From contig JAADEH010000010.1 of assembly GCA_013153495.1 (NCBI GenBank), positions 26,379-90,378 of the forward strand: a stretch of DNA of 64,000 nt. The letters are read 5' to 3'. Below, piece after piece: positions 6,696 through 36,327 of the stretch. This DNA comes from Aquificota bacterium (GTDB lineage: Bacteria; Aquificota; Aquificia; Aquificales; Aquificaceae). Each line of letters starts with the position of its first letter. Positions within the stretch are counted from its first letter, which is position 1. Below the pieces are notes generated by a model that made no database searches, had not been told where the DNA came from, and saw only the letters and a list, made by a program, of their open reading frames with translations. The position numbers were made by a program, and so were the translations under genes.

Positions 6696-7838
6696 GTGAA
6701 GTTCGACGTCGTAGTTGTAGGTGCAGGACCCGCAGGTGCAAAAACCGCCTACGAGCTTGCCCGCAAAGGTGCAAAAGTCCTGATAATAGAAAAGCACAAA
6801 CTTCCCCGCTTCAAACTCTGCGGTGGATGCCTCTCCGCCAGAACCGCAGCCCTTTTACCCGAAGGCTGGCAAGGACAGGTCCTCAACGAAATAAAGAAGG
6901 GAATACTCGGATTTAAAGGAAAAGAGTTTATAGAAAAGACCGCCCTTCGGGCGGTGGCTTACATAATAGACAGAACATCCTTTGACCACTTCCTCACCCA
7001 AAAGGCTATCGAGGCAGGTGCCCAGCTCTGGGAAGAGGCACCCCTGACTCACTTCACCGTGGAAAATACCGTGAAAATTTCAACTCCCAAAGGAACGGTG
7101 AAGGCAGACTTCCTGGTGGGATCGGACGGCTTTTACACCAAAGTGGGAAAAATCCTCGGATACCAGAAGAAAAACTTCTTCCGCTCGGTAGAGTTCTGGA
7201 CCGAAGGCAACCTTCAGGATAGCGTCGTAATAGACCTCGGAATAGTATCCCGTGGCTACGCCTGGATTTTTCCGAAGGGAAACATGCTCAGCATAGGTGT
7301 TGCCACTACGGGAAGGGAAAACCTGAAAGATGTTCTCGAAAGGTATGTCAGAGACCATAAACTCCTCGAAAACATTACCGTAAAAGGTCTCAAGGGCTGG
7401 ATGATACCCTACCTAACCAAACCCGAAGACGCCCATCTGGGAAGGGGAAGAATTCTCCTTGTGGGAGATTCCGCAAATCTGGTGGACCCCCTGTTGGGAG
7501 AGGGCATATACTATGCGCTCAAAAGCGCCGAGCTTTGCGCCCAATCCATACTCAGCTCCCCTGAAAACCCGCTGCCCCAATACAGAAACTCCCTTCTGCG
7601 GGAAGTTATTCCCGAACTCGTATCCGCAGGAAAGATTGCCAACCTCGCCTATCGCTTTCAGAGGGTAGCCTACCGAATGGGTGCGGGATTTTCCCTCGAG
7701 AGGTTCTTCAAACTCTTGGAGGGGGAAGAGACCTACGAAAGCCTGTATCGCAAGGGAATGCCTGAATTTATTATGTCTCTCTTGCATATTGAAAATTTTT
7801 TGCATATAATAATAGATAAAATCTTAAGGAGGAGGTAA
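6696..7838 (+). CDS. Geranylgeranyl-reductase-family FAD oxidoreductase
   Basis: VVGAGPAG FAD motif, PRFKLCGG, GYAWIFP, and LVGDSANLVDPLLGEGIYYA. Confidence 0.8.
   Translation: MKFDVVVVGAGPAGAKTAYELARKGAKVLIIEKHKLPRFKLCGGCLSARTAALLPEGWQGQVLNEIKKGILGFKGKEFIEKTALRAVAYIIDRTSFDHFLTQKAIEAGAQLWEEAPLTHFTVENTVKISTPKGTVKADFLVGSDGFYTKVGKILGYQKKNFFRSVEFWTEGNLQDSVVIDLGIVSRGYAWIFPKGNMLSIGVATTGRENLKDVLERYVRDHKLLENITVKGLKGWMIPYLTKPEDAHLGRGRILLVGDSANLVDPLLGEGIYYALKSAELCAQSILSSPENPLPQYRNSLLREVIPELVSAGKIANLAYRFQRVAYRMGAGFSLERFFKLLEGEETYESLYRKGMPEFIMSLLHIENFLHIIIDKILRRR
7782..7810 (+). promoter_or_regulatory. Sigma70 promoter for the rubrerythrin operon, embedded in the 3' end of the upstream CDS
   Basis: TTGCAT (7782-7787), 17-nt spacer, TATAAT (7805-7810), in an abruptly AT-rich patch. 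Confidence 0.6.
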
Positions 7839-9635: not shown

Positions 9636-10226
9636 GTGATGCGTAAGGTAAGCATGAAGGACATTCTTAACCTTTACGAATACGAAAAGGTCAGGGACCA
9701 GAAGATTAAGGAAATAGCCCAAAAGAAGAAAAAGAGAAGAGTTCACGTGGGAGACAAGGTAACCCTCGTATTCGAGAACTTTGACACCGTTTGGTTTCAA
9801 ATTCAGGAGATGATAAGAGCGGAGAGAATGGTCAAAGATGAAGACATTCAGTTTGAGATAGATACCTACAACGAACTTATACCCGAGAAAAACCAGCTCT
9901 CCGCAACCATGTTCATAGAGATACCAGACCAGAAGGAGAGGAGAGAAACGCTCCCCAAACTCGTGGGAATACACGATGCGGTTTACATGCACATAGGGAA
10001 TAAATACACCGTAAAAGCCCGTGCGGACGAAAAGAGCCAGATGGATTACGAGGAAGGAAAGGCATCGGTGGTTCACTTCCTAAAGTGGGACCTCACTCCC
10101 GAGCAGGTGGAAGCCTTCAAGAAGGAACCTGTCAGGATTGAGATAAACCACGAAAACTACAAAGCTATGACCGAAATCCCCCCCGAAGTGAAAGAGGAGC
10201 TTGTAAAGGACTTAGAGAGCGACTGA
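9636..10226 (+). CDS. DUF3501 family protein
   Basis: YEKVR..., RRVHVGD.VTLVFEN, QIQEMIRAE and EIDTYNELIP; third gene of the rubrerythrin/Fe-S oxidoreductase triad. Confidence 0.8.
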   Translation: MMRKVSMKDILNLYEYEKVRDQKIKEIAQKKKKRRVHVGDKVTLVFENFDTVWFQIQEMIRAERMVKDEDIQFEIDTYNELIPEKNQLSATMFIEIPDQKERRETLPKLVGIHDAVYMHIGNKYTVKARADEKSQMDYEEGKASVVHFLKWDLTPEQVEAFKKEPVRIEINHENYKAMTEIPPEVKEELVKDLESD

Positions 10227-21381: not shown

Positions 21382-23757
21382 TTGGAAAAGAAGCGGGTTC
21401 AGGACGTAGCTAAGGAGCTTGGTATCAAAACCAAGAAGCTTATTGAATTTCTCGAGGAGTGGGCACCGAGGGACGACGAAAAGAAGTGGACCAACTTTCA
21501 CATCCTCGACGATGAACATATCGAGATGATTTACCAGGAGTTCGGAGAGCCTCAAAGTGAGAAAAAAGAGACCGCTGTCGCGGTGGAGGAGAAGAAGGAA
21601 GAAAAAGAGGAAAAGAAAGCCGAGGTAAGCGAGGAGGAAGAGGAGATAAAGGTAGAGGAAAAACCCATAGAAGAAGTAGTCGCGGAGGTTCTCGGCAAGG
21701 AGGTCAGAGAAGAAAAACCCAAGGAGGAAACCAGACCTCCCAAGCCCGAACGCAGACCCAGACCGGAAAGGAGAAGACCTGTAAGGGAGTTTAGAAAGCC
21801 ACCCAAGGGAGAGGTAAAACCCAAAGAACCCCCCAAACCTGTGGAACAGAAGAAGGAGGAGAAAAAACCACAGCCCAAGGAGGAAAAGAAAAAGGAGAAG
21901 CTCTCCAAAGAGGAACAGCAGATACTGAAGAAACTCCAACAGCAAATGGAGCGTGAAAAGAAAAAGGAAGAGAGAAGACAGCAGGAGAAAAAGAAGGAGG
22001 ACGAGATAAAGATAATCGAGATATACGAGGGCATAACGGTTCGGGAGCTGGCGGACTTACTCGGAGTTCCTGCCAACAAGGTCATCGGAGAGCTTATGAA
22101 GAGGGGAATACTCGCTACCATAAACCAGGCTGTTCCCACCGATGTTGCGATTGAGGTTGCGGAGAGTTTCGGATTTTTAGCGGAGGCTAAGAAAGAAGAG
22201 GAGGAGGAAACCCTCATAGAGGAAATTCCCGACAAACCCGAAGACCTCAAACCCAGACCCCCGATAGTGGTGGTTATGGGACACGTTGACCACGGCAAAA
22301 CTACCCTTCTGGATACTATAAGGAAGACCAACGTAGCGGAGCGGGAAAAGGGAGGTATTACTCAGCACATAGGTGCTTATCAGGTAAAGCTCCCCGACGG
22401 AAGGATAATCACTTTCCTCGATACACCCGGACACGAAGCCTTCACCACCCTCAGAGCGAGGGGTGCTCAAATTACGGACATTGCGGTTCTCGTGGTTGCG
22501 GCGGACGACGGCGTCATGCCCCAGACCATAGAAGCTATAAACCACGCAAAAGCCTTCAACGTTCCCATAATAGTCGCGGTTAACAAGATAGATAAACCCG
22601 GTGCTGATCCCATGAAGGTCAGAAGGGAGCTTTCCGAGCACGGACTCATACCCGAAGAGTGGGGCGGAGACACGATATTCGTTGACGTTTCCGCAAAGAC
22701 CGGTCAAAACGTAGAACAGCTCTTGGAGATGATAAATCTCTTGGCGGACATCCTCGAACTCAAAGCTAACCCCAACAAGAGAGCTAAGGGGGTCATAATA
22801 GAGACCAAACTCGACAGGAAAAAGGGACCCACCGCAACCGTCATAATTCAGGAAGGAACGCTTCGCGTTGGAGACACATTCGTTGCTGGTATAACCCACG
22901 GAAGGGTCCGTGCCATGTTTGACGACAAAGGTAGGCAGGTAAAAGAGGCGACCCCCTCAACACCCGTCGAGGTTCTCGGATTTGAAGACCTTCCCGAGGC
23001 GGGGGACACCCTCGTGGTGGTCGATAGTGAGCGCAAGGCGAGGGAGATAGCGGAGAAGATACGGGAAAAGAGGGAAAAGGAGGAGAAACTTGCCCAGAGC
23101 GTCAGGCTCGAAGACATATACAAGAAAATACAGTCGGGAGAGACTAAGGAGCTTCTTCTCATAATAAAGGCGGACACGATGGGTTCTCTGGAAGCCCTGA
23201 AAAAGTCCCTCGAGGAGCTTTCCACCGATAAGGTTGCGGTTCGGGTCATACACGGTGCGGTGGGAGGAATAACCGAGAACGACGTTATGCTCGCAAAGGC
23301 ATCGGGAGCGATAATCATAGGCTTCAACACCAGACCGGACCCCAAGGCGAGGGAGCTTATAGAAAAGGAAAAGGTAGATGCCCGTATGTATGGAATAATC
23401 TACCAGGTTATAGACGACGTAAAGAAAGCCCTTCAGGGTCTCCTCGAGCCTGTGGAGAGGGAGGAGGTTCTCGGTTCTGCGGAGGTAAGAGCTACCTTCA
23501 AGGTGAAGAAGGTGGGAACCGTCGCGGGATGTTACGTTCTGGAAGGTAAGATGGTTAGGGGAGCCAAGGCGAGACTCATACGGGAAGGTGTTGTGGTTTA
23601 CGACGGGGAGATAGAAAACCTCAAAAGGTTCAAAGAGGACGTTCAGGAAGTAGCCAAGGGATACGAATGCGGTATAAAGCTCAAAGACTTCAACGACGTG
23701 AAAGTAGGGGACATAATAGAATGTTACGAGATAAAGTTAGAGCAACCAACGCTCTGA
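21382..23757 (+). CDS. infB: Translation initiation factor IF-2
   Basis: [29 protein letters not shown] and NKID; E/K/P-rich N-terminus; TTG start. Confidence 0.97.
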
Positions 23758-24377
23758 GCGTTAACGAAATATACAGCTCTATCCAAGGGGAGGGACTTCT
23801 TGTCGGGACACCTTCCCTCTTCATAAGACTTCAGGGATGCAACTTAAGGTGCCCCTGGTGCGACCAGCCCGAAGCCCTATCCTTCTCAAAATCCGAAGTT
23901 CCCTTGGAAGACGTCCTACGGCAGGCTCAGGAAAGCCCCTTCAGACATGCGGTTATAACGGGCGGAGAGCCTATGGCTCACGAGGGACTGCCTGCCCTCG
24001 TTAAAGCTCTTTTGGAAGAAGGCTTCAGCGTTCAGATAGAGACCAACGGCACCCTTTGGCAGGAAGCCCTCGAAGAGAAAGCGAAGGAAATACACATAAC
24101 CTGTTCTCCCAAAGCGGTGGCGGGTTTCTTCGTCCACCCCAAGGTTCTGAAGTATGCCAAGGAGCTTAAGTTCGTCGTCGATGAGGAACTTACCGCTGAA
24201 ATCCTGCTCAGGCAAGAGTTCAAGCGCTTTTTGGAGGGAGGACTCGTCGTTTTGCAACCGGAAAGCAACAGAAAGGATATGTTCGAGAAAGCCCTACGCA
24301 TTCAGGAGGATATGGCTGAAAAAGGTTATAGAGTCAGGATAATTCCCCAGATTCACAAATTCCTTGGAATTCGCTGA
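23721..24377 (+). CDS. queE: 7-carboxy-7-deazaguanine synthase (radical SAM)
   Basis: [30 protein letters not shown], and IPQIHK. The start is uncertain; the ATG at 23721 overlaps the infB end. Confidence 0.85.
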
Positions 24378-24396: not shown

Positions 24397-24424
24397 TTGC
24401 AATAAGAAGCGCTTATACTATAAT
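24397..24424 (+). promoter_or_regulatory. LysR gene promoter containing a T-N11-A operator
   Basis: TTGCAA (24397-24402), 16 nt, TATAAT (24419-24424). The dyad ATAAG-N5-CTTAT (24402-24416) lies in the spacer. Confidence 0.65.
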
Positions 24425-24435
24425 TAAAGTTTGAT

Positions 24436-25350
24436 ATGATTGACATTTCTAAACTTAAAACCTTTGTTACAGTAGCAGACCTCGGGAGCTTCTCCAAGGC
24501 TTCCGAAATCCTATACATAACCCAGCCCGCAGTTACCCAGCAGATAAAAGCCCTCGAGAAAACCATAGGAGCGAAGCTCTTTCAGAGACAGGGCGGTAAG
24601 ATGTGCCTGACCGAAGAGGGAAAACGCATATATGAAATAGCCAAGATACTACTCGGAAGCTACGAAGGTCTTATGGAGGAAATAGCCAAGATAAAGAAGG
24701 ACCTTAAAGACACCCTCTTTCTCGGCGTCAGCGCAACCCTCAGCGAATACATAATTCCCTCACTCATTGCGGAGTTTCACAGGGAATTTCCCAGTGCAAC
24801 GGTAAAGATATTTACCGGAAACTCCCACGACGTAGAAGAGGGGTTGCTGTCGGGAGTGCTCAACCTCGGGATAATAGAGAGGGAACCTTCCAACAAGTTC
24901 GTCAGCGTCCCCTGGCTCGAGGACGAAATAATATTCTTCACATACCCCCAGAACCCCATAGCGAATGCGGGAGAGATAGACCCGGAGGACCTATACAACG
25001 TTGACCTCGTTATGAGGGAGATGAACTCCGGAACCCGTAAGATAGTCAGAGAAGCCTTAGAAAAACTCGGCGTCGTGTTCGAGAGGCTGAACATAAAGAT
25101 AGAGGCGAACAACAGCAGAACCATAATGCACATAGTCAAGAACGGATACGGAGCTTCTTTCCTTTCCAAGGGACTCATAATAAGGGAGATAGAGAGGGGA
25201 ACGATAGTTCCCGTAAAGATAAAAGGCTTTAAGGTTAAGAGGAGGTTCAACATAATTTATCCCAAAACTTCCAACGTTACCTTCCTTGCCAGCAATTTCG
25301 TTAAATTCGTTCTTTCCAAAACCCAGGAGAGCGTTCCCGAAAGGGTGTGA
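24436..25350 (+). CDS. LysR-family transcriptional regulator
   Basis: LKTFVTVADLGSFSKASEILYITQPAVTQQIKALE HTH, followed by a substrate-binding domain (CysL-like style). Confidence 0.92.
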   Translation: MIDISKLKTFVTVADLGSFSKASEILYITQPAVTQQIKALEKTIGAKLFQRQGGKMCLTEEGKRIYEIAKILLGSYEGLMEEIAKIKKDLKDTLFLGVSATLSEYIIPSLIAEFHREFPSATVKIFTGNSHDVEEGLLSGVLNLGIIEREPSNKFVSVPWLEDEIIFFTYPQNPIANAGEIDPEDLYNVDLVMREMNSGTRKIVREALEKLGVVFERLNIKIEANNSRTIMHIVKNGYGASFLSKGLIIREIERGTIVPVKIKGFKVKRRFNIIYPKTSNVTFLASNFVKFVLSKTQESVPERV

Positions 25351-25351
25351 A

Positions 25352-26053
25352 ATGAAAGCTGTTATCTTCGACGTTGACGGCGTTATAGTGGACGTGCGGG
25401 AGAGCTATCATTACGCTATAAAGGAGACCGCTGAGCACTTTCTCGGTCGTGAAGTTCCTCTCAAGACGGTAAAGGAAATAAAGTTTTCCAAAGCCATAAA
25501 CAACGATTGGGACGTAACCTACGAAGTCATAAAGCATTACGGTGGAGAGGCAGACTACGAGGAACTTGTGGAAAAGTTCACGGAGATTTACGAAAGGTTA
25601 AAAGACAGAGAGAGACAAATACTGTCGGCAGACTTCTTCAGAAGGCTCAAAGAAGCGGGAATACCTCTCGGTATAGTTACCGGAAGACCGAAGAGGGACC
25701 TCGATTACGTTCTCGACAGGTTCAAGATAAGGGAGTTTTTTGACGTAACGGTGGACGAGGACGACATAGTGGATAAAAACCTCAGAAAGCCACACCCTTT
25801 CCCCCTCCACCTGTGCATGGAAAGTCTCGGTGCACATGAGGGTATCTACGTGGGAGACAACAATGCGGATTACGAGATGGTGCACTTTTACAGGAAGATA
25901 TACTCAAAACCTGTTAAGTTCGTCCACTTCAACAAGGTGGTTGACCTTAAAATCCCCTCCGACTTTACCACAGATAGGGAAGAGGAACTTACGAATTACC
26001 TTCTTCGAGAGGCTTCCCCGAGTCGGGAAGGAGAACGGGTATCCCCTCTTTAA
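25352..26053 (+). CDS. HAD-superfamily hydrolase
   Basis: FDVDGV, VTGR, KPHP and YVGD motifs. Start reassigned to the ATG at 25352. Confidence 0.85.
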   Translation: MKAVIFDVDGVIVDVRESYHYAIKETAEHFLGREVPLKTVKEIKFSKAINNDWDVTYEVIKHYGGEADYEELVEKFTEIYERLKDRERQILSADFFRRLKEAGIPLGIVTGRPKRDLDYVLDRFKIREFFDVTVDEDDIVDKNLRKPHPFPLHLCMESLGAHEGIYVGDNNADYEMVHFYRKIYSKPVKFVHFNKVVDLKIPSDFTTDREEELTNYLLREASPSREGERVSPL

Positions 26054-26168
26054 CTTCGTAATAAACCCTACAGTTTCTGCACACGAGGATTTCCTTCTCG
26101 GAGTTGTATTCAAGCTCTCCCTTGCATACGGGACAGGCAAGCACTTCCAAAAGCTTATCGTCGAGCAT
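25989..26168 (-). CDS. Trm112/YcaR-like protein
   Basis: LLEVLACPVCKGEL...LVC..C...Y.VKEGIPVLL; the ATG at 26168 overlaps the stop of the upstream gene. Confidence 0.85.
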   Translation of the reverse strand: MLDDKLLEVLACPVCKGELEYNSEKEILVCRNCRVYYEVKEGIPVLLPDSGKPLEEGNS

Positions 26169-26581
26169 CAGCTTATCTCCTTCACATACTCCCAAAGCTC
26201 TTTCATAAACCTCTTGAACTCGGAGAGTTTCTTACTGTCAAGCTTTTTAGATAGTTTCCTTTCATCGAAGGTAAGCTCTCCGCTCACCGGTGCGTAGTCT
26301 ATGTATTGCAGGTCGGAGATGTTTAGGTCAAATACGCACATGTATTGCTGAGCTTCCTTCTTGAACAGAACGAACTCAGCTTCATAGGGTTGGGACACCT
26401 TCGTATCCCACTGAAAACTACCCCCGAAGGGATTGAGCCAGAACTGTTCGTTATCAGCCATACAAAACTCTGCTCTCTTTACGGACATCAAATCCAGCAT
26501 AAGCTCCCCATCGGGCATCATAACCGCCCAAACCTTATCTCCCTTAAGAGGGTTTAGTAAAAAAGTAACGGTATTTTCCAT
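26168..26581 (-). CDS. Hypothetical protein (137 aa)
   Basis: Coding-like ORF translationally coupled to the Trm112-like gene; no motif recognised. Confidence 0.6.
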   Translation of the reverse strand: MENTVTFLLNPLKGDKVWAVMMPDGELMLDLMSVKRAEFCMADNEQFWLNPFGGSFQWDTKVSQPYEAEFVLFKKEAQQYMCVFDLNISDLQYIDYAPVSGELTFDERKLSKKLDSKKLSEFKRFMKELWEYVKEIS

Positions 26582-26614
26582 TATTTGTCCCCCTTTGGTA
26601 ATATTATAAGGGAC

Positions 26615-26884
26615 ATGCGCCTGCGTATTTTTGTATCGGGAGTGGTGCAGGGAGTAGGATTTAGAGCATACACCCAGAGGGTCGCAGAAAGTTACGGACT
26701 TTCAGGATGGGTAAGGAACCTTCCCGACGGGAGAGTTGAAATCCTCGCAGAAGGAGACGAAGAAGTTTTATGTCATTTCGTAAAAGAGGTATGGAAGGGA
26801 CCGAGGCTTGCGAGGGTTGACAAGCTGGAGATTATAAAGGAGGAGTCCGATGAACCTCTTCGTGGTTTTGATATTAAGTATTAG
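26615..26884 (+). CDS. acyP: Acylphosphatase
   Basis: VSGVVQGVGFR and GWVRNLPDGRVE. Start reassigned to the ATG at 26615. Confidence 0.92.
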   Translation: MRLRIFVSGVVQGVGFRAYTQRVAESYGLSGWVRNLPDGRVEILAEGDEEVLCHFVKEVWKGPRLARVDKLEIIKEESDEPLRGFDIKY

Positions 26885-27848
26885 TTTTTTTATAGGAACC
26901 GCTGAAGCGGTTAAATGCAGAACCTACTACAAAGTCAGACCGGGGGACAGCCCGTGGAAAATAGCCAAAAAATACAACCTCTCCGTAAAGGACATAGAAA
27001 AAGCCAATCCCCGCCTCAAGCGTGAGAGGTTCCTCAAAGTTGGTCAGAGAATATGCATACCCTACAAAAAGAAAACCAAAAGGGTGAAAAGGAAGAAGAG
27101 AACAGAATACATAACATACACTGTAAGACCCGGGGACAGCCTTCAAAAGATAGCCAAAAGGTTCGGTGTGAGCTGGAAAGAAATAAAAAGAATAAACGGA
27201 CTCAGGAGCAATACAATTCGTGTGGGTCAAAAGCTCAAAATACCCAAAAGGGTTTCCGTGGCAAAGAGAAAGGTCAGGAAAACCAGAACTTACAGGAAGA
27301 GGAATGTAGTTTATATAAAGTATAGAGTTCGCAAGGGGGACAGCCTTCAGAAAATAGCCAAAAAGTTCGGTGTAAGTTGGAAAGAAATAAAGAGAGCCAA
27401 CAGGCTCAGAAGCAACCTCATAAGAGTCGGACAGATACTTAAAATTCCCGTTCCGAGAAGGTCCTTTGAAAGGAGATTTGTCAGCAAACCTAAAATCAGG
27501 CTTGCCTTTCTTCCCGTGGACGGTAAGGTTAAAAAAAGCACGAGGGGTGTTGACATATACGCTTCCTGCGGTGATAAGGTTAGAGCGGTGGATAGCGGGA
27601 GGGTTATATACAGCGGGGACGACCTGACCAGCTACGGCAATACCATAATAGTCGAGCATCCGGGATACCTGTCCGTTTATGCCTATAACATGCAGAACCT
27701 TGTGGACAGAGGGGATAAGGTTTCCAAGGGTGAAATCATAGGTAAAGTAGGACTGAAGCCCGGTTCCGGTAAGTGTGCCCTTCACTTCGAAATAAGGTCC
27801 AAGGACGGCTCCGTTCTCAACCCCCTTGAATATCTCGGTAAGAAGTAA
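26850..27848 (+). CDS. Triple-LysM / M23 (LytM) protein, NlpD-like
   Basis: Signal peptide; three Y.VR.GDS...IAKK LysM repeats; C-terminal GVDI...YGNTIIVEH...LHFEIR. Confidence 0.85.
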   Translation: MNLFVVLILSISFFIGTAEAVKCRTYYKVRPGDSPWKIAKKYNLSVKDIEKANPRLKRERFLKVGQRICIPYKKKTKRVKRKKRTEYITYTVRPGDSLQKIAKRFGVSWKEIKRINGLRSNTIRVGQKLKIPKRVSVAKRKVRKTRTYRKRNVVYIKYRVRKGDSLQKIAKKFGVSWKEIKRANRLRSNLIRVGQILKIPVPRRSFERRFVSKPKIRLAFLPVDGKVKKSTRGVDIYASCGDKVRAVDSGRVIYSGDDLTSYGNTIIVEHPGYLSVYAYNMQNLVDRGDKVSKGEIIGKVGLKPGSGKCALHFEIRSKDGSVLNPLEYLGKK

Positions 27849-27854
27849 TACAAT
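27826..27854 (+). promoter_or_regulatory. Sigma70 promoter of rplM-rpsI
   Basis: TTGAAT (27826-27831), 17 nt, TACAAT (27849-27854). Confidence 0.6.
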
Positions 27855-27879
27855 ATTGGTTTCCTGAAAGGAGAGTGAG

Positions 27880-28314
27880 ATGAAGACATACAGGGTAAAG
27901 CCTCAAGAAGTGGAAAGAAAGTGGTTCGTGGTAGATGCGGAAGGCAAGGTCTTGGGAAGGCTCGCCAGCGAGATAGCCAAGATACTCAGGGGAAAGCACA
28001 AGCCTTACTATCAACCCGACGTTGACTGCGGGGACTTCGTGGTAGTTATAAATGCGGAGAAGATAAGGGTAACCGGTAAGAAGCTGGACCAGAAGAAGTA
28101 TTACAGACACTCCAACTATCCCGGAGGTCTAAAAGAAAGAACTCTCAGATGGATGCTGGAGAACAAGCCCGAAGAAGTCATAAGGCTTGCGGTAAAGCGC
28201 ATGCTCCCTAAAAACAGGCTCGGACACAGGATGCTCAAAAAGCTAAAGGTATATAGAGGTCCCGAACATCCCCACCAAGCTCAAAAGCCCCAACCCCTGG
28301 AGGTTAAGGCATGA
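27880..28314 (+). CDS. rplM: 50S ribosomal protein L13
   Basis: [24 protein letters not shown] and YRHSNYPGG. Confidence 0.97.
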
Positions 28315-28751
28315 ACAAGCTAAAGGATTTCAGGATAACCCCTGAAAATTCTCACTACGGAACTGGAAGGCGTAAGGAAGCCATAGCGAGGGTGTGGATA
28401 CTGAAAGACAACACCGACAAGTTCATCGTAAAGGTTAAAGAAACCGGCAAGGAGTATGACCTCAGAGACTACGTCCAAAGGGAAACCCTCTATCAGAAGG
28501 TAATGCTACCCTTTAAGGTTACCGGAACGGAAGGAAAGTTCGGTATATTTGCTACCGTCGAAGGAGGCGGTATATCCGGTCAGGCGGAAGCCATAATGTA
28601 TGGCATTGCAAAAGCTCTCCTGGGATACAACCCCGACTTCAGACCTTCCCTTAAAAAGGCAGGACTGCTCACGAGGGACGCAAGGGAGAAGGAGAGGAAG
28701 AAATACGCTCAGATGGGTGCAAGGGCTAAATACAGGTGGAGCAAACGTTAA
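28311..28751 (+). CDS. rpsI: 30S ribosomal protein S9
   Basis: [23 protein letters not shown], and [13 protein letters not shown]...SKR. Confidence 0.97.
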
Positions 28752-29755
28752 GGGTCTCCGTCTTCGGTGCTACCGGATACACAGCTTCCGAGCTTATCCG
28801 GGTTCTAACCTCACACCCTTATGCAGAAATAACTAATCTTATCTCCTCTTCCACCGCAGGCAAAGCGGTTTCGGAAGTTCTACCTCACATGACCCACTCC
28901 ATCGGGGATAAGAGATTGCTTACCGAACCGGAGGAGGATTACGACCTTGCCTTTCTATGTCTCCCCCACGAAGCCTCTATGGAACTGGTCCCAAAACTTT
29001 TAAAGCAGGGCAAGAAGGTAATAGACCTGTCGGGTGCATACAGGATAAGAAACCCCCAAGCTTACGAGGAATTCTACGGCTTTGAACATTCTTACAAAGG
29101 ATTGCTCCAGGAAGCGGTCTATGGGCTTCCGGAACTATTCAGGAAAGAGATAAGAAAAGCTAACCTCGTAGCCAACCCCGGATGTTATCCCACCGCAACC
29201 CTGCTGGCGTTATATCCGTTTGTGAAAGAAAGTATTGAATTTGAAAGCGTTATAATCCACGCCCTGTCGGGCGTATCGGGTGCAGGAAGGAAGACGAGGC
29301 AACACTTCCACTACCCGGAAATGACCGAAAACTTTTTCTCTTACTCCGTGGAGAAGCACAGACACACTCCAGAGATGGAGGACATTATAAAGAGATTAAC
29401 AGGCAAAGACATAAAACTGCGCTTTACGCCGACGGTGGTTCCATCATCGAGGGGAATGCTATCTACCGTCTATATAAGAACATCAGAGCTTAATCTCCGA
29501 GAGCTGTATATGGAAACTTACAGGTTTGAACCTTTCGTCAGGGTTGTAGATACACCCCCCATGACCAAGTGGACCTTAGGGACAAACAGCTGCTACATCT
29601 ACCCCACCTATGATGAGAGAACCTCAACTGCGGTGATAATATCAGCCATAGACAACCTCGGTAAGGGAGCATCCCTGCAGGCTGTTCAAAACATGAACCT
29701 GATGATAGGCTTTGAGGAAGAGCTGGGACTACCTAAACACCCCCTATATCCATAA
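28736..29755 (+). CDS. argC: N-acetyl-gamma-glutamyl-phosphate reductase
   Basis: FGATGY, DLSGAYR, NPGCYPT, SGVSGAG, and DNLGKGA. Confidence 0.93.
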   Translation: MEQTLRVSVFGATGYTASELIRVLTSHPYAEITNLISSSTAGKAVSEVLPHMTHSIGDKRLLTEPEEDYDLAFLCLPHEASMELVPKLLKQGKKVIDLSGAYRIRNPQAYEEFYGFEHSYKGLLQEAVYGLPELFRKEIRKANLVANPGCYPTATLLALYPFVKESIEFESVIIHALSGVSGAGRKTRQHFHYPEMTENFFSYSVEKHRHTPEMEDIIKRLTGKDIKLRFTPTVVPSSRGMLSTVYIRTSELNLRELYMETYRFEPFVRVVDTPPMTKWTLGTNSCYIYPTYDERTSTAVIISAIDNLGKGASLQAVQNMNLMIGFEEELGLPKHPLYP

Positions 29756-29779
29756 GGAAATTTGTATATGCGAATTATT

Positions 29780-29819
29780 TTAAATTAGACTTATTTATCA
29801 GAACATAAGTAAGATTTAA
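29780..29819. promoter_or_regulatory. Paired inverted T-N11-A operator upstream of the sox cluster
   Basis: TTAAATTAGACTTAT-N10-ATAAGTAAGATTTAA; the arms are 12/15 complementary and each arm is a T-N11-A box. Confidence 0.55.
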
Positions 29820-29858
29820 GAAAATTTCCAAAACCTATCCTCTAAATTATTTACTGCA

Positions 29859-30275
29859 ATGCTGGCGTTTTTGGCGCTTCTAATTATTGGAATATCAGCA
29901 TTTTCTTATTCTCAAACCGAAGGGTGGGTAACGGACTTTGACAGAGGTGTTGAGCTTGCGAAGAGCCAAAATAAGGAGGTTTTAATTTACTTTTACGGTG
30001 AACACTGCCCATACTGCTTACAGATGGAGGAATTCGTCTTAGGAGACCCGGAAGTTGACAGTTATATAAGAGAAAGATTTGTAGTTGTAAGTTTGAATAT
30101 AAGTGAAGTTCATGAACTTGATAAAAAATTTGGTGTAATAGGAACTCCCTACTTCGTCGTTTATGACCCTAAAAGGGATAAAATAGTTTTGAGAATATTT
30201 GGAAGTAGGGAGAGGGAAGACTTTTTGAACTTGCTAATTAAGGCTTGTAAGAAATCCAATCTAAGGAGGTGTTAG
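29859..30275 (+). CDS. soxW: SoxW-like periplasmic thioredoxin
   Basis: Signal peptide; CPYC and GTPY motifs; first gene of the sox cluster. Confidence 0.7.
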   Translation: MLAFLALLIIGISAFSYSQTEGWVTDFDRGVELAKSQNKEVLIYFYGEHCPYCLQMEEFVLGDPEVDSYIRERFVVVSLNISEVHELDKKFGVIGTPYFVVYDPKRDKIVLRIFGSREREDFLNLLIKACKKSNLRRC

Positions 30276-30277
30276 AT

Positions 30278-30736
30278 ATGATTACAAGAAGGGACCTTTT
30301 CAAGGTCGCAGGAGTGGGAGCGGTGGCATTAGCCGTGGCTCCCGGAGCGGTCAAGCCTTCCTTTGGGGCACCCAAGAAGATATCCATCGAGGACTCCCTC
30401 AAGGAGCATTTGGGAGTAGGTCTTTCGGCTCTCAAGGAGAGCAACCTCATTCACATCAAGGCTCCCACGATAGCCGAGTCCGGCGCAAACGTTCCGGTCC
30501 AGGTCAAGGCGAACATACCCGTTGACCAGGTTCAGGCTCTTTACATATTTGCGGATGCAAACTTCAATCCCTGGGTAACTACAGTCGAGTTCTCTCCCAT
30601 GAACGGTGAGGTTTTCTTTGCAACCAGAATAAAGCTCGCTAAGACTTCTCCCGTCAGAGCTGTAATAAAGATGAAGGACGGAAGCCTGCTGGCTGCTGCT
30701 AAGGAAGTTAAGGTTACGGTCGGCGGTTGCGGCTGA
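30278..30736 (+). CDS. soxY: Sulfur carrier SoxY
   Basis: Tat signal RRDLF; APTIAESGANVP; C-terminal VTVGGCG swinging arm. Confidence 0.95.
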   Translation: MITRRDLFKVAGVGAVALAVAPGAVKPSFGAPKKISIEDSLKEHLGVGLSALKESNLIHIKAPTIAESGANVPVQVKANIPVDQVQALYIFADANFNPWVTTVEFSPMNGEVFFATRIKLAKTSPVRAVIKMKDGSLLAAAKEVKVTVGGCG

Positions 30737-30772
30737 TAAAACTCTTTAAAAAACCTTAAAGGGAGGTAGAAG

Positions 30773-31105
30773 ATGTCAAGACTTGGAAGAGCTATCGTAA
30801 GAGTGCCCAGAAGAATAAGCAAGGGGCAAGTTTTCAAAGTTCAGATGGTTATAACTCACCCCATGGAAACCGGTCTCAGGAAGGACAAGAAGACCGGTAA
30901 GGTCATACCTGCTCACTACATAACCAAGGTTGAGTTTCTCTTCAACGGTCAGAAAGTTACTACCCTTCACACCGGACCGGGTGTGAGTAAGAACCCTTAC
31001 TTTGCCATAATGATGAAGGCTACCGAGTCCGGAACGCTCACCATAAAGTATGAGGACAACAAAGGAGGCAAGTGGGAAAAGAGCGTCAAGATTAACGTCT
31101 CTTAA
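30773..31105 (+). CDS. soxZ: SoxZ
   Basis: ITHPMETGLRKD...IPAHYI and VSKNPY. Confidence 0.95.
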   Translation: MSRLGRAIVRVPRRISKGQVFKVQMVITHPMETGLRKDKKTGKVIPAHYITKVEFLFNGQKVTTLHTGPGVSKNPYFAIMMKATESGTLTIKYEDNKGGKWEKSVKINVS

Positions 31106-31123
31106 TTTTAAGGAGGGGTTGGT

Positions 31124-31951
31124 ATGAAGAAGAGAACGCTTTTTGCTTCCGCTTTGCTGGCAGGAGGGGCAATTTTAGGAACAGCGGCGGTAGCGCAGGA
31201 GCAACTCCCCACCCACCTGAAGGAGCTTCTCGAGCTGGGTATGCATCCCGGACACTCCTTCGTGGACGAAGGTAGGGAGATGTTCCACAAGCCCGGACCC
31301 AACGGCAAATCCTGTGCAACCTGCCACGGTCAGGACGGTGTTAAGTTAGAGGGTGCTTATGCAAAGATGCCCAGATACTACAAGGACATAGGCAAAGTTG
31401 CGGATATAGACCTGAGAATACTTGCCTGTATGACAAAATACATGGGATACGACAAGAACGATAAGAAGTTCATGAAGAAGTTCAACAAGTGGAGCGGACC
31501 TTACAGGGTTCCCCTCGCATCCTATGTGGCATCTCTCTCTAACGGTCAGGAGATAAACGTTCAGCTCAATCATCCGGAAGAGAAGAGAATGTATAAGCTC
31601 GGTGAGGAACTCTGGTTTATGAGGGTTGGTGCAAGGGACTTCTCCTGCGGAATTTGCCACACCGTGCTGGCAGGTAAGAGGATAAGACTTCAGGGATTGC
31701 CCGACCCGGTTAAACAGAAGGTTTATACCCACTGGCCCGCATACAGGTTCGGTTCCGACAGAATGTGGACCATGGAAGACAGAGTCAGGAGCTGTTGGAA
31801 GGCATACTTCCTATATGTAAAACAGTGGAATGAGAAGAAGGATTGGGTCAAGAAGCCCCCACCTTACTCCGAGTGGGTCATAGCCTTGGAGCTTTACATG
31901 AAGAAAGCAGCCAACGGTGGAACCATAGAGGTTCCCGGACTCTTGAGGTAA
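31124..31951 (+). CDS. soxA: SoxA diheme cytochrome c
   Basis: Signal peptide; CATCH and CGICH; RILAC and RVRSC Cys ligands; WPAYR. Confidence 0.9.
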   Translation: MKKRTLFASALLAGGAILGTAAVAQEQLPTHLKELLELGMHPGHSFVDEGREMFHKPGPNGKSCATCHGQDGVKLEGAYAKMPRYYKDIGKVADIDLRILACMTKYMGYDKNDKKFMKKFNKWSGPYRVPLASYVASLSNGQEINVQLNHPEEKRMYKLGEELWFMRVGARDFSCGICHTVLAGKRIRLQGLPDPVKQKVYTHWPAYRFGSDRMWTMEDRVRSCWKAYFLYVKQWNEKKDWVKKPPPYSEWVIALELYMKKAANGGTIEVPGLLR

Positions 31952-31969
31952 TTTGAAGGAGGGGCAAAG

Positions 31970-32560
31970 ATGAAAAAGATAGTTATAGCTGGTGCGGTAG
32001 CTGGACTCGGACTTTTGGTTGCCTGCCAGCCGGCGGCACAGCAGACAGAAGCTCCTAAGAAGGAGGTAACCGCTCAGAAGAAGAAGCTCTCCAAGCACGA
32101 GAAGTTCAAGATAGCACTTGAAAATCAGGATAAATACCAGAAGGCATGTTCAAATCCCGTTCAGCTCGTTCCCGAGGGAATAGACATAGAGACCTTTAAG
32201 AAGGAAATGCTCGCAACAGTTAAGTTCCCCGAGGGAGGAGTTGTAGGAAAGAACATAGCCAGAGGAGAGAAGCTCTTCGGAGACCCGAAGAAGGGCGGAA
32301 AGAGCAGAAGGGGTAACTGCTACGCTTGCCACTGTGGAGACCCGCAGATAATAGCCTGCGGAAATATAGGACCTTCCCTTAGGGGTTACGGAAAGAGAGG
32401 CATAGACCCTAAGGAAACCTACATAAGGATATACAACTCCTGGGCTGTTAACCCCTGTTCCGTCATGCCGAGACTCGGATACCACGGCGTCCTATCCCCC
32501 GAGGAGATTGCTGATATTGTTGCCTACATGCACGACCCTAACTCTCCCCTTAACAAGTGA
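31970..32560 (+). CDS. soxX: SoxX cytochrome c (lipoprotein)
   Basis: LLVAC lipobox; GNCYACH; GNIGPSL; SVMPRLG. Confidence 0.9.
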   Translation: MKKIVIAGAVAGLGLLVACQPAAQQTEAPKKEVTAQKKKLSKHEKFKIALENQDKYQKACSNPVQLVPEGIDIETFKKEMLATVKFPEGGVVGKNIARGEKLFGDPKKGGKSRRGNCYACHCGDPQIIACGNIGPSLRGYGKRGIDPKETYIRIYNSWAVNPCSVMPRLGYHGVLSPEEIADIVAYMHDPNSPLNK

Positions 32561-32569
32561 TGTCTATCA

Positions 32570-32588
32570 AGGGGGCGCTTTGCCCCCT
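32570..32588 (+). terminator. Hairpin between soxX and soxB (terminator or mRNA stabiliser)
   Basis: AGGGGGC-GCTTT-GCCCCCT; no immediate U tract. Confidence 0.45.
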
Positions 32589-32655
32589 GATGTTCAACAT
32601 AGACTTGTCCGAATGTGTTATTTCTTTTTTTTATGTTTAGAGGAGGTGACGGCAG

Positions 32656-34410
32656 ATGCATTTAACTCGTAGGGACTTTCTGGAACTGGCAATAGTTACG
32701 GGAGCCTTTATGACCGCTAATCCCGTAGCTACGCTCGCTAAGATGACTTACGACGACATTATGAGCTTCAAATCGGTGGGGAACGTAACCCTGCTCTTTA
32801 CCACCGACATGCACGCACACCTTGACCCGCTATACTTTGCGGAACCCATGAACCTCGTAGCTCCCAAGAAGCTCATGGGAACACCCGGCTACATCACGGG
32901 AATGGAATTCCTCAAGTTCTACAAGATAGCTCCGGGAACGCTCGAAGCCTACTTCACGAGCTGTGTTGACTTTCCGAAACTCGCTCACAAGTTCGGTAAG
33001 ATGGGTGGTGCCGCACACATAACCACCATAATCAAGCATGTCATAGCGGAGAGAGGAAGGGACAAAGTCCTCGTAATGGACGGAGGAGATACCTGGACCA
33101 CCACAGCCATAGGAACTTTCACGGAAGGAAAATCCGTGGTCGAGTGGATGAACTATACGGGATACGACCTTTTCGTTGCTCACTGGGACTTCACCTTCGG
33201 TAAAGAGACCTTTCTCAAGAGGATAGAGGAACTTGAAAAGGGTGGTTGCGAGTTCATAACCCACAATGTAGTTGACGAAATGTGGGGAGACCTCGTCTTC
33301 AAACCCTACACCATAAAAGAGGTTGGAGGAGTAAAGCTCGGGATAATAGGAAGCTCTTTCCCCTTCACTCCCTTGGCAAACCCCAGACAGTTTGTGGAAG
33401 GCTGGAGCTTCGGAATTAGGGAAGACCAGCTTCAGCAGTTCGTTAACGAACTCAGGGAACAGCACAAGGTAGATGCGGTTATATTCCTCACCCACAACGG
33501 TTTCCCTCTGGACCAGAAAATAGCTCGTGTGGTTCAGGGAATTGATGTGATAATTTCCGGGCACACCCACGACGTTACCCCCAGAGCTATCAAGGTGGGT
33601 AAGACTATCGTCGTCATAGCGGGTTCCCACGGTAAGTTCGTAGGAAGACTCGACCTCGACATAAAGAACGGAAGGATAAGGGATTACAGGTTCAAGCTCT
33701 ATCCCGTGGCGTCCAACCTCGTTCCTGCGGATAAGGGCGCTCAAAAGATTGTTGATAAATGGAAGAAGGAGGTTACCAAGACCCACAAGCTGGAAGAAGA
33801 GATAGGCGTTGCTGAGGTTATGCTCTACAAGAGGGATACCTTCTTCTCCACCTGGGATTGGCTCGTAGGAGAGGCTATAAACGACTACTACGGCGGAGAC
33901 CTTGACGTGGTAACCTCTCCCGGATACAGATGGGGAACGGTAGTTCTACCCGGGCAGAAGATAACGAGGGACCACGTCTATGACTACACCGCTATAACCT
34001 ATCCCAACGTCTATGTTCTCAAGAGGACAGGAAAGCAACTCCTCGAGGTCTGGGAGGATGTGGCGGACAACGTCTTCAACCCTGACCCCTTCTATCAGCA
34101 GGGGGGAGACATGTCCAGGCTCTGGAATGTGGAATACGAGATAGAGGTGAACGGACCCCAGTATAACCGTATAAGGAATGTCCGCATAGGTGGCAAACCT
34201 CTCAAGGAGAACAAGGAATACCTCATGGCGGTTTACGGAGGACCACCCCCACCCGAGGATGCCATACATCCCGATTACAAACCCGTTCCCGTATATGACA
34301 TACTCATCGACTACATTAAGAAGAAGAAGAACATAAAGGTCAGAACCAAGCCTAACGTGAAGGTTCTGGACGCTCCTTATAAAACCTACGAGGAGTGTTT
34401 CGGGACATGA
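32656..34410 (+). CDS. soxB: Thiosulfohydrolase SoxB
   Basis: Tat signal RRDFL; TDMHAH, DGGDT, HWDF, LTHNG and SGHTHD (5'-nucleotidase fold). Confidence 0.95.
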   Translation: MHLTRRDFLELAIVTGAFMTANPVATLAKMTYDDIMSFKSVGNVTLLFTTDMHAHLDPLYFAEPMNLVAPKKLMGTPGYITGMEFLKFYKIAPGTLEAYFTSCVDFPKLAHKFGKMGGAAHITTIIKHVIAERGRDKVLVMDGGDTWTTTAIGTFTEGKSVVEWMNYTGYDLFVAHWDFTFGKETFLKRIEELEKGGCEFITHNVVDEMWGDLVFKPYTIKEVGGVKLGIIGSSFPFTPLANPRQFVEGWSFGIREDQLQQFVNELREQHKVDAVIFLTHNGFPLDQKIARVVQGIDVIISGHTHDVTPRAIKVGKTIVVIAGSHGKFVGRLDLDIKNGRIRDYRFKLYPVASNLVPADKGAQKIVDKWKKEVTKTHKLEEEIGVAEVMLYKRDTFFSTWDWLVGEAINDYYGGDLDVVTSPGYRWGTVVLPGQKITRDHVYDYTAITYPNVYVLKRTGKQLLEVWEDVADNVFNPDPFYQQGGDMSRLWNVEYEIEVNGPQYNRIRNVRIGGKPLKENKEYLMAVYGGPPPPEDAIHPDYKPVPVYDILIDYIKKKKNIKVRTKPNVKVLDAPYKTYEECFGT

Positions 34411-34904
34411 AGGCGATACTCTTTCTGCTGGGCGGCGTTCTTGCCGTCCTTGCCTTTATGTTTTACGTCCGAACCCAGCTCATAACTCCCGAAAACATGT
34501 TCTTTTTCACCATGGAGGTTAAGAATAAAGAACACCAGCAGGTAGTTCAGGAACTCGTTCAAAAACTGAACGAAAAGGGACTAAAAGTTATAAGAACCCT
34601 TCCCATGTCCAAGGTCATTCATGAGAGGGGCATAAGGGACTTTCCCAATTACACCACCATACTTGCCTGCGACATAGAGGAGAAGAAGGAACTCCTCAGA
34701 AAGGTCCCCTTCATGAGTGTCCTTATACCCTGCAGTGTGGCGGTTTACGAAAAGGAGGGTAAAGTTTACATAACCTCTATGAAGGAGATACTCCTCGTAA
34801 AGGATTACTCGGAGGAGCTTGGAGACAGATACATACAGCTTATAGCGGATACATACCAACAGCTCAGGATAGCCATAGCGGAGGTGGCGGAGGAAAGAGA
34901 ATGA
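34407..34904 (+). CDS. DUF302-like protein (membrane-anchored)
   Basis: N-terminal TM; TILAC and LIPCSVAVYE motifs. Confidence 0.7.
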   Translation: MKAILFLLGGVLAVLAFMFYVRTQLITPENMFFFTMEVKNKEHQQVVQELVQKLNEKGLKVIRTLPMSKVIHERGIRDFPNYTTILACDIEEKKELLRKVPFMSVLIPCSVAVYEKEGKVYITSMKEILLVKDYSEELGDRYIQLIADTYQQLRIAIAEVAEERE

Positions 34905-35350
34905 GAACCTTGCTTCTGATACCTATACTCCTGATAACCTTTGCTTTTACTCAGGAACAGAAGAAACACCCCATGCAGTATGAAGAGGTTATAGAGGGGT
35001 TGGACTTTGAAGATGTGAAACTGCTTCTGAAAACTGCTCTTGACGGGAGGAATATGAACGTTCTGGGTGTTATAGATGTTGCCACCGACAAGCCGAGGTT
35101 TTCCTACTTCCTGGTCTGTAACCTCTCCTATGCGGAAAAGATATTCAGGGAAATGCCTCAGCTTGGGGTTATGGCTCCCTGCAGGATATACCTATACGAG
35201 AGGGAAGACGGCTCTGTGGTGATTGGCTTTGTAAATGTAAAGACCTTGCTCAGGGTCTTCGGGGATAAACTCTCCAAGCAATCCCAAGAGCTTTTTTTAA
35301 AGGCGGACAAGGACATAAAGTCTGCCATACAGGAAGTTAGAGGAGAGTGA
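34901..35350 (+). CDS. DUF302-like protein (exported)
   Basis: Signal peptide; FLVCN and MAPCRIYLYE motifs. Confidence 0.7.
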   Translation: MRTLLLIPILLITFAFTQEQKKHPMQYEEVIEGLDFEDVKLLLKTALDGRNMNVLGVIDVATDKPRFSYFLVCNLSYAEKIFREMPQLGVMAPCRIYLYEREDGSVVIGFVNVKTLLRVFGDKLSKQSQELFLKADKDIKSAIQEVRGE

Positions 35351-36327
35351 TGCTTCCTCTGGCTAAATTCTTCTTACTCTTTCTGCTCGGAGTTGTTGTT
35401 GCAGGTGAATACCCTAAACACGTTAAGGAAACCTTGAGGAAGGTTGCGGAGGGGGTTTACGGAGTCTTCGGGGTTTACGAACAGGTCAGTTACGAGAACA
35501 GAGGTTTTATCTCAAATGCTTACTTTGTAATGACCGACGACGGCGTTCTGGTGGTGGACGCTCTGACTACCTACAAACTCGGTAGGGAACTCGTGGAGGC
35601 TGTAAGGAGCTTGACCGACAAACCTATAAGGTTCACCGTAATAACCCACTACCATACGGACCACTTTTATGGGGTGGGTGCTCTGAAGGAAGCGGGTTCG
35701 GTAATAATAGCTCACGAGTGGGCTTTCGATTACGTTTCCCAGCCTTCGAGCTGGAACTTTTACGAGGCGAGGAAGAAAATTTTAAAGGAACACATGGATG
35801 GAACCGACATGGTTCCCCCGGACATAACCCTCACGAAGGACCTCGATATTCACTTGGGCAAACACAGGTTTGAGGTTAGGCACTTCTGCAAGGCACACAC
35901 TCCGGGAGATATTGTAGTCTGGATACCCGATAAAAAGGTTCTCTTCAGCGGGGACATAGTTTTCGACGGAAGGCTTCCCTTTTTGGGTTCCGGCAACTCG
36001 AGGGGCTGGCTCAAGTGCCTCGACAAGATAATGGAGCTTGACCCGAATATACTCCTTCCCGGGCACGGAAACCCCATGCTTACAAAGGATAAGATAAGGG
36101 ACAGGGTTCTGTGGACCCGCAAATACATAGCGGACCTGAGAAACACCATAAGGAAGATGATAGAGGAGGGGCAGGACATAGATTATGTGAGAGAGCACAT
36201 AAACGAGGCTATGTTGGAGATAGACCCTTCCTACGCTCAGGTTCCCGTTTTCTTCGACGTTAATCCTGTAAACGCTTATTACGTTTACTTTGAGATAGAG
36301 AACGAAATGCTCGAGGAGGAAGAGTAA
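35347..36327 (+). CDS. soxH: Exported metallo-beta-lactamase-fold protein (SoxH-like)
   Basis: Signal peptide; THYHTDH, AHTPGD, FSGD and PGHG; last gene of the sox cluster. Confidence 0.7.
   Translation: MMLPLAKFFLLFLLGVVVAGEYPKHVKETLRKVAEGVYGVFGVYEQVSYENRGFISNAYFVMTDDGVLVVDALTTYKLGRELVEAVRSLTDKPIRFTVITHYHTDHFYGVGALKEAGSVIIAHEWAFDYVSQPSSWNFYEARKKILKEHMDGTDMVPPDITLTKDLDIHLGKHRFEVRHFCKAHTPGDIVVWIPDKKVLFSGDIVFDGRLPFLGSGNSRGWLKCLDKIMELDPNILLPGHGNPMLTKDKIRDRVLWTRKYIADLRNTIRKMIEEGQDIDYVREHINEAMLEIDPSYAQVPVFFDVNPVNAYYVYFEIENEMLEEEE

Follow-up and report, generated by a model that had tools for sequence, protein, structure and literature searches.

A LysR-type regulator probably controls the sox operon of a heat-loving, sulfur-oxidising bacterium of the phylum Aquificota (family Aquificaceae), acting through dyads of the type ATAAG-N5-CTTAT, and sulfite is the likely signal. 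The regulator gene (24436-25350, + strand) and the operon (29859-36327, + strand) lie on a 64,000-nucleotide stretch of contig JAADEH010000010.1, here called the window, from whose first letter the coordinates are counted. A first-pass annotation of this DNA had drawn the link from a perfect dyad in the lysR promoter and two related boxes in front of soxW. The link is supported in silico: a weight matrix made only from LysR promoters ranks the sox-promoter dyads high, and the dyads are repeated in sox loci that are not linked to a LysR gene. Conservation of the motif upstream of sox and LysR orthologues, which the annotation had proposed as a check, comes out favourable. The protein is a LysR-type regulator and the architecture of the sites is classical.

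Dyads in the lysR and soxW promoters

The best sigma-70-type promoter match between 24000 and 30400 (10/12 positions) precedes the LysR gene at 24397-24424 on the + strand. It consists of a -35-like TTGCAA (24397-24402), a 16-nt spacer and a -10-like TATAAT (24419-24424), and it is kept in the orthologous loci. Between the two hexamers lies the perfect dyad ATAAGAAGCGCTTAT (24402-24416), ATAAG-N5-CTTAT with T-N11-A spacing, exactly where the first-pass annotation had placed it. This is the single occurrence of ATAAG-N5-CTTAT in the 64 kb, against 0.05 expected; 5/100 shuffled sequences held one. The ATG is 11 nt beyond the -10 and has no Shine-Dalgarno sequence, so the lysR mRNA is probably leaderless. 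Transcription starts were placed ~7 nt past the -10-like boxes, and all dyad positions given relative to a start rest on this placement; the lysR dyad would then be centred at about -22.

A genome scan with the LysR protein retrieved 28 Aquificaceae loci with 56-96% identity (compared loci are cited by L numbers). In about 24/27 of the orthologous promoters the half-sites ATAAG and (C/G/T)TTAT are kept and the central N5 is free, across orthologues of 57-96% protein identity. The half-sites are also kept in Hydrogenobacter thermophilus and in relatives of low G+C content, at 50-57% protein identity. Seven LysR promoters (L007, L018, L019, L022, L023, L027, L095) carry two tandem dyads 21-22 bp apart; the second one, in distant orthologues, falls at about -44 from the inferred start. 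The L023 promoter carries an ATTAG variant, as does the sox promoter of the window. The site at 24402-24416 is proposed, from its position and conservation, as an autoregulatory operator. The LysR coding sequence of the H. thermophilus genome L095 itself contains a strong dyad, ATAAGAAGCGGTTAT (6700-6714, 15.8 bits), ~200 bp before the start of the next gene, a HAD-family hydrolase; the matching part of the window LysR gene has no site of similar score.

In front of soxW the first-pass annotation had read two boxes, TTAAATTAGACTTAT at 29780-29794 and ATAAGTAAGATTTAA at 29805-29819, and both are found there exactly. Footprinting by alignment of nine argC-soxW spacers upholds the second box and changes the first. 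Four blocks are invariant in 9/9 spacers, TTTAAATTAG (29779-29788), TTAT (29795-29798), CATAAG (29804-29809) and TTAA (29816-29819), separated by variable DNA. Apart from the window, only L001 has the CTTAT of box 1 (29790-29794). Because it is not conserved, the register 29780-29794 was rejected; the conserved register lies 4 bp downstream. The distal dyad is therefore ATTAG-N5-TTTAT (29784-29798; centre 29791, about -64; 9.3 bits), with ATTAG and TTAT invariant in the nine spacers. The proximal dyad is box 2, ATAAG-N5-TTTAA (29805-29819; centre 29812, about -43, 47 nt upstream of the soxW start codon; 8.9 bits). The distance between the centres, given earlier as 25 bp, is corrected to 21 bp. 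The four half-sites ATTAG, TTAT, CATAAG and TTAA thus follow one another at ~10.5 bp with variable DNA between. Boxes 1 and 2 are also the arms of one imperfect palindrome (29773-29794 / 29805-29826; 77% complementary).

Next to the soxW start the same alignment gives an invariant block, TCTAAATTATTTACTGCAATG (TCTAAATTA-TT-ACTGC-AT; 29841-29861, + strand). It includes a -10-like TAAATT (29843-29848) 10 nt before the soxW ATG, without a Shine-Dalgarno sequence. A promoter scan of the + strand from 29756 to 29858 gave no full sigma-70 match, and no -35 is recognisable at sox. A -10-like hexamer also stands 6-13 nt before the soxW ATG in L090, L091, L093 and L094. A -10 just 10-11 nt from the ATG, together with the lack of a Shine-Dalgarno sequence, suggests that the lysR and soxW mRNAs are leaderless or nearly so; downstream genes, for example soxY in L009, do carry GGAGG. 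From the inferred starts, the dyad centres fall at about -64/-43 in the window and L093, at about -66/-45 in L091 and, as a single strong dyad, at about -42 in L090. A spacing of 21-22 bp is common to the window, L086, L087, L089, L091 and L093. A conserved block, TTCTTATATGC, is present 31 bp upstream of the distal dyad (29761-29771; L003:11292, L006:13632, L012:5090). It makes a weak third site in relatives (NNNNN-N5-CTTAT, 5-7 bits), is degenerate in the window (TTGTATATGC), and may represent either an additional half-site or a promoter element of another kind.

To score sites, a symmetrised weight matrix was built from 20 LysR-promoter operators, with no sox sequence included. Among the 63,986 positions of the window the lysR dyad (24402) ranks 1st with 17.7 bits, the distal sox dyad (29784) 6th and the proximal one (29805) 7th; box 1 in its first register (29780) ranks fourteenth. 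In all nine syntenic spacers both sox dyads are among the top three matches. When the sox spacer is dinucleotide-shuffled, a pair as good as that of the window, 20-22 bp apart, arises with a frequency of 5e-5, or 0.0016 when 15-35 bp is allowed. The window has other high matches (among them 34934, 29150, 34829 and 29971), all within coding sequence; they were not treated as sites, because they have no equivalent among the top matches of related loci. Those at 34934 (ATAACCTTTGCTTTT) and 34829 (ATACATACAGCTTAT), which rank 2nd and 4th in the window, stand on either side of the boundary between two DUF302 genes (34829-34948) and are probably chance occurrences.

The matrix finds the same sites where sox and LysR are unlinked. 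Sox loci were retrieved at growing distance, with 10-20 kb of DNA seen around each gene. Five of them have unrelated upstream neighbours and no LysR gene within 10 kb on either side of sox: L090 (Aquifex pyrophilus), L091 (a Hydrogenobacter thermophilus-like genome), L092 (an Aquifex aeolicus-like metagenome-assembled genome), L093 and L094. In 5/5 the soxW promoter holds the top-scoring site of the whole 15-20 kb locus, which in three of them (L090, L092, L093) is a perfect ATAAG-N5-CTTAT. L090 and L092, where the upstream neighbours are a divergent chorismate-binding enzyme gene and an inositol-phosphatase gene, share a perfect ATAAGAACTTCTTAT (20.2 bits) centred 46 nt before the soxW ATG. 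L093, with lepA upstream, has a perfect ATAAGCTTTGCTTAT (20.1 bits), followed 22 bp on by another dyad. In L091, ATAGATATACCTTAT and ATAAGCAAAATTTAT are 21 bp apart and score 9.8 and 16.6 bits, respectively; the proximal one is centred 45 nt upstream of the start codon. L094 has the dyad ATAAGTAAAATTTAT (16.0 bits). In L087 a mutL-like gene stands between argC and sox and no LysR gene lies within 10 kb upstream of soxY; ATTAG-N5-GTTAT is followed there by ATAAG-N5-ATTAG 21 bp on. Across 598 kb of Aquificaceae DNA there are 11 sites of at least 14 bits outside LysR promoters, and 5/11 are in the sox promoters of L090-L094 (including L093:9492). Under a conservative null (top match anywhere in ~1.5-2 kb of intergenic DNA per locus, an estimate), the probability for four independent lineages is ~1e-4.

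In three lineages the conserved promoter and the "ATGTTAAGG" start are followed by no soxW or by a mere short piece of it (L009:4880-5030, L086:2375-2620, L087:9800-10000). SoxY comes next there, with its own Shine-Dalgarno sequence, and the promoter and both dyads are kept; the dyads therefore serve the whole sox operon and not soxW alone. A. pyrophilus L090 also carries a second perfect dyad, ATAAGGAAACCTTAT (4566-4580, 19.0 bits), ~50 bp upstream of a TATAAT before a 158-aa, all-helical hypothetical open reading frame (4011-4487, minus strand). No informative Pfam match, and no homologue in the compared DNA, was found for this reading frame, which may be a further member of the regulon.

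In the proposed scheme the regulator would bind dyads of the ATAAG-N5-CTTAT type. At about -22, between the -35 and the -10, binding would amount to classical autorepression of the lysR-HAD operon. The sox dyads at about -64 and -43, 21 bp apart, would form a layout of regulatory site plus activation site, and a tetramer at the soxW promoter would control soxW-YZAXB plus the downstream DUF302 and SoxH-like genes. Control of sox would most likely be activation, because its promoter has a -10 but no -35.

The regulator protein and its candidate effector

The 304-aa protein matches Pfam HTH_1 (PF00126, 3.6e-22) and LysR_substrate (PF03466, 8.4e-40), the architecture of a LysR-type regulator. Its orthologue group is sharply bounded: identity is at least 50% within Aquificaceae and then at most 35%. 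Residues T29-K38 of the recognition helix are invariant in 24 orthologues. The best three NCBIfam models are, in order, NF040786, PRK10837 and YeiE, and all score below cutoff. NF040786, a selenium-metabolism-associated LysR family, gave 239.2 bits against a cutoff of 250, with no selenium-metabolism gene among the annotated neighbours, and was rejected. The YeiE model (NF040889) gave 155 bits against a cutoff of 480; the regulator is no YeiE orthologue and, because of this score, was not filed as YeiE, and the claim made here is limited to likeness of the effector pocket.

Solved homologues are NdhR (5Y2V) and YeiE (8SBF, 8SBH, 7ERP). In Cronobacter sakazakii YeiE, sulfite is contacted by Ser96, Ser97, Asn126, Ser127, Glu145, Arg191, Ser195 and Thr197, and Glu145 excludes sulfate (PMC8931317). 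In an HMMER alignment these contacts map to S99, A100, N129, S130, E148, R194, S198 and T200, of which 7/8 are identical. The chain of the E145S mutant (7FDF) fixes the column of the selectivity glutamate, E148 here. This YeiE-like pattern is kept in the orthologues of at least 61% identity. The ligands of 2-phosphoglycolate in NdhR (Thr101, Thr102, His130, Asn164, Arg195, Thr201, Arg267) are identical at 3/7 positions (R194, T200, R269), and all three are common to YeiE too. At the positions that discriminate, the regulator is YeiE-like, with Glu148 versus Ser in NdhR, Ser130 versus His and Asp163 versus Asn, and it has Ala in place of NdhR Thr101. Persulfide sensing by thiols, as in SoxR, was rejected because the sole cysteine (C57) is not conserved; most orthologues have Val there. 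Gene calls around LysR in L089, L095, L096 and L097 include nothing like yeiH.

Sulfite is put forward as the effector on the strength of the pocket match, with the chances about evenly balanced; because the pocket matches that of YeiE, it would be the likeliest signal. The Sox system uses sulfite as a substrate, and sulfite is also produced in the cytoplasm during sulfur oxidation. The first-pass annotation had suggested a sulfur or thiosulfate sensor. The pocket resembles the sulfite pocket of YeiE and is no obvious site for thiosulfate or sulfide.

Alternative explanations and points against the proposal

Several observations weigh against control of sox by this regulator through sulfite. 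The whole case rests on computation, and the four sequencing runs that cover the region are all DNA (metagenome), with no RNA run. The sox dyads of the window lineage are degenerate (9.3 and 8.9 bits versus 17.7 for the autoregulatory site), and each taken alone is at chance level (p≈0.1). No recognisable dyad was found in the LysR promoters of L017, L025 and L026. Among sox promoters, the two sites of L094 are 28 bp apart and not 21-22, L088 (SoxY 60%) has a single moderate dyad of 9.1 bits that is unpaired with a LysR promoter of its own lineage, and the stronger dyad differs by lineage, being distal in L093 and L089 and proximal in Aquifex and Hydrogenobacter. The gene that accompanies the regulator across genomes encodes the HAD hydrolase and is not a sox gene. 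As for the effector, the best-scoring solved structure is NdhR (117 bits) and not YeiE (~95-109 bits), and the YeiE contact Ser97 is Ala or Thr in the regulator group.

It is very unlikely that the dyads are mere coincidence, ATAAG- and TTAT-like words being held by AT-rich promoter DNA anyway and LysR being unrelated to sox. Coincidence would fit some of the facts. One half-site plus T-N11-A, by which the first-pass annotation had recognised its sox boxes, proved a weak rule, with 26 and 28 matches in the window in the two orientations, and the CTTAT of box 1 is not conserved. The closeness of LysR and sox is inherited synteny. That annotation would have given up its reading if such boxes were as common in shuffled DNA; the comparison goes against the single box, since 10.5% of dinucleotide-shuffled sox spacers contain a site as good as box 2, and in favour of the pair, which is rare at 20-22 bp. 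Chance is also at odds with half-sites that are kept while the spacers vary, and with perfect or near-perfect dyads that come top in each of the five sox loci without a linked LysR gene and stand at a constant distance from the soxW start codon. Least probable, and hardly credible, is that the palindrome at 29773-29826 acts as RNA, as an argC terminator or a soxW leader attenuator. Its 22-nt arms are 77% complementary and the spacer has a folding energy of -13.8 kcal/mol at 37 C, but this is no better than in shuffled sequence (z = -1.40, with 15/200 shuffles equally stable), and the consensus fold of the nine spacers (-0.17 kcal/mol) lacks this hairpin and has no helpful covariation. No T-run follows the palindrome, the terminator scan is empty there and no Rfam match was found; the dyads keep their distance from soxW despite differing upstream genes. 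An A+U-rich stem would, moreover, be unstable at the growth temperatures of this thermophilic family.

A different factor, such as a LysR-type paralogue or a global regulator, might bind the shared dyad, with lysR-HAD and sox as its co-regulated targets. This is unlikely, though it deserves to be taken seriously: the compared DNA extends 10-20 kb around each gene, so further paralogues may lie elsewhere, which also counts against the proposal, and the HAD gene that regularly adjoins this LysR has no obvious sulfur role. The dyad, however, follows the promoter of the orthologue across the family, together with an invariant recognition helix, and no second LysR-family gene was found in the window besides 24436-25350. 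T-N11-A dyads with tandem sites 21-22 bp apart are a LysR-type signature, and regulators of this type normally bind the promoter of their own gene (PMC11495319), and YeiE is known to bind and repress its own promoter (PMC12880088).

Distinctly improbable is a regulator that senses a phosphorylated carbon metabolite (for example 2-phosphoglycolate, like NdhR or CmpR) and whose main job is the HAD phosphatase; any effect on sox would then link sulfur oxidation to carbon status and not to a sulfur compound. HAD_2-type hydrolases include phosphoglycolate phosphatases, and a HAD_2-type hydrolase is the universally conserved partner here. In L022 a gene for a CCG-domain oxidoreductase, like GlcF of glycolate oxidase or like HdrD, is divergent from LysR. 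The NdhR structure (5Y2V) scores best, and the NdhR operator ATAG-N8-CTAT is similar in flavour (PMC13249358). The pocket argues against such a metabolite: the three NdhR ligands that are kept occur in YeiE as well, and the discriminating positions are YeiE-like. Aquificaceae take up CO2 via the reductive tricarboxylic acid cycle and are not known to have RuBisCO, the usual source of 2-phosphoglycolate, which also weighs against it. Control of sox by this LysR regulator, with sulfite as the likely signal, thus remains the preferred reading.

Gene context and known systems

The nearest genomes are Aquificaceae; with Hydrogenivirga caldilitoris, identity is 91% for the LysR protein and 88% for SoxY. 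The sox operon of the window, all on the + strand, consists of soxW (thioredoxin-like, 29859-30275), soxY (30269-30736), soxZ (30773-31105), soxA (31124-31951), soxX (31970-32560) and soxB (32656-34410), followed by two DUF302 genes (34395-35350) and a SoxH-like gene of the metallo-beta-lactamase fold (35347-36327). Genes were assigned with Pfam and NCBIfam, and soxY, soxZ, soxA, soxX and soxB score above cutoff. The order of the sox genes is identical in L089-L094. No ArsR-family gene (Pfam) was found within 10 kb of sox in six genomes (L089-L094); whole genomes were not searched.

Upstream of the LysR gene the window has infB (21382-23757) and a queE-like radical-SAM gene (23667-24377). As listed, the latter overlaps the end of infB by 91 nt (23667-23757), and its real start is probably an ATG further downstream. 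The HAD-family hydrolase gene (25352-26053, + strand; Pfam HAD_2 and Hydrolase) follows LysR, and next comes a hypothetical gene of 137 aa on the opposite strand. Genes for an acylphosphatase and a LysM/M23 peptidase, rplM, rpsI and then argC (28736-29755) fill the DNA up to sox. LysR and sox are ~5.4 kb apart only in genomes that keep the entire infB-queE-LysR-HAD-...-rplM-rpsI-argC block in synteny; the LysR-HAD pair of L007 and L015-L027 has another location. Physical linkage was dropped as evidence because sox adjoins LysR only in this block, and the proximity reflects incidental synteny of unrelated housekeeping genes.

The HAD gene is next to LysR in every Aquificaceae locus with sequence after LysR (L001-L027, L089, L095, L096, L097). 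Its ATG (25352) is 1 nt past the LysR stop codon, and in H. thermophilus the two genes overlap; co-transcription of lysR and the HAD gene is therefore probable. Conservation of the LysR-HAD pair goes far beyond that of any link to sox. The genes upstream of LysR differ between loci (queE-like, LMWPc or others). In Hydrogenobacter (L095, L018, L019) the gene before LysR encodes a low-molecular-weight phosphatase (LMWPc), and one database protein, P0195, lists HTH_1, LMWPc and LysR_substrate in one 457-aa product, possibly a fusion protein. The oxidoreductase gene of L022 (8673-9968, minus strand; iron-sulfur, CCG-domain) diverges from LysR at 10001, and both dyads lie within the spacer common to the two genes.

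The regulator and its operator are a testable pair, with a 15-bp motif, sites in the sox promoters of Hydrogenivirga, Aquifex and Hydrogenobacter, and sulfite as candidate effector. Tentatively, and with some doubt, sox in Aquificaceae may be placed under a YeiE-like, sulfite-sensing LysR regulator and not under an ArsR-type SoxR, the same regulator also autoregulating its operon with the conserved HAD phosphatase. If this is true, an early-branching chemolithoautotroph lineage runs the same pathway with another regulator family and signal molecule, YeiE-type sulfite sensors extend from sulfite detoxification to lithotrophic energy metabolism, and a heat-stable pair of sulfite-responsive regulator and promoter would be at hand.

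In the searchable open-access literature, transcriptional control of sox means the proteobacterial ArsR-type SoxR and sHdrR (PMC12423496). No LysR-type sox regulator, nor any sox control in Aquificae, was found in searchable open-access papers and bioRxiv preprints. LysR proteins mentioned in sox papers offered no precedent; those followed up were CbbR-type RuBisCO regulators or concerned unrelated genes. The role proposed here is like that of SoxR and sHdrR of Alphaproteobacteria, in that transcription of sox would be coupled to the availability of sulfur compounds. It differs in family (LysR versus ArsR), in signal recognition (non-covalent oxyanion binding versus cysteine persulfidation) and in expected logic (LysR-type repression and activation versus simple repression).

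In classical LysR-type systems (BenM, CbnR, DntR, OccR) a regulatory site lies near -65 and activation sites overlap the -35, with a "sliding dimer" (PMC11495319). The sites described here resemble these in their T-N11-A dyads, two helical turns apart and, with the starts assumed here, at about -64/-43, in a target without a -35 and in an operator at the self-promoter. Unlike in the classical cases, regulator and target genes do not diverge from each other here and often lie far apart, the stronger sox dyad varies between lineages, and no third site was identified. NdhR/CcmR of Synechocystis (5Y2V), which senses 2-oxoglutarate and 2-phosphoglycolate, is a full-length homologue with a similar operator (ATAG-N8-CTAT), but it has Ser where the selectivity column here has Glu, and the regulator keeps 3/7 of its 2-phosphoglycolate ligands.

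Hyphomicrobium denitrificans, another sulfur oxidiser, also has a YeiE-like regulator, Hden_0835. Thiosulfate induces it strongly without dependence on SoxR or sHdrR, and it is a proposed sulfite sensor (PMC12423496, PMC11582611). It adjoins the sulfite exporter gene yeiH, which it is proposed to switch on, whereas sox in that organism is under ArsR-type repressors; in the window the dyads are located directly in the promoter of sox. YeiE of C. sakazakii, E. coli and Salmonella (7ERP, 7ERQ, 7FDF, 8SBH; PMC8931317, PMC12880088) shares with the present regulator the LysR-type architecture, 7/8 sulfite-contacting residues including Glu145 and, as proposed here, repression of its own promoter. The targets of YeiE are the adjacent sulfite-stress gene yeiH and sulfite reduction genes, whereas the neighbour here is a HAD gene and the predicted target is the periplasmic Sox operon.

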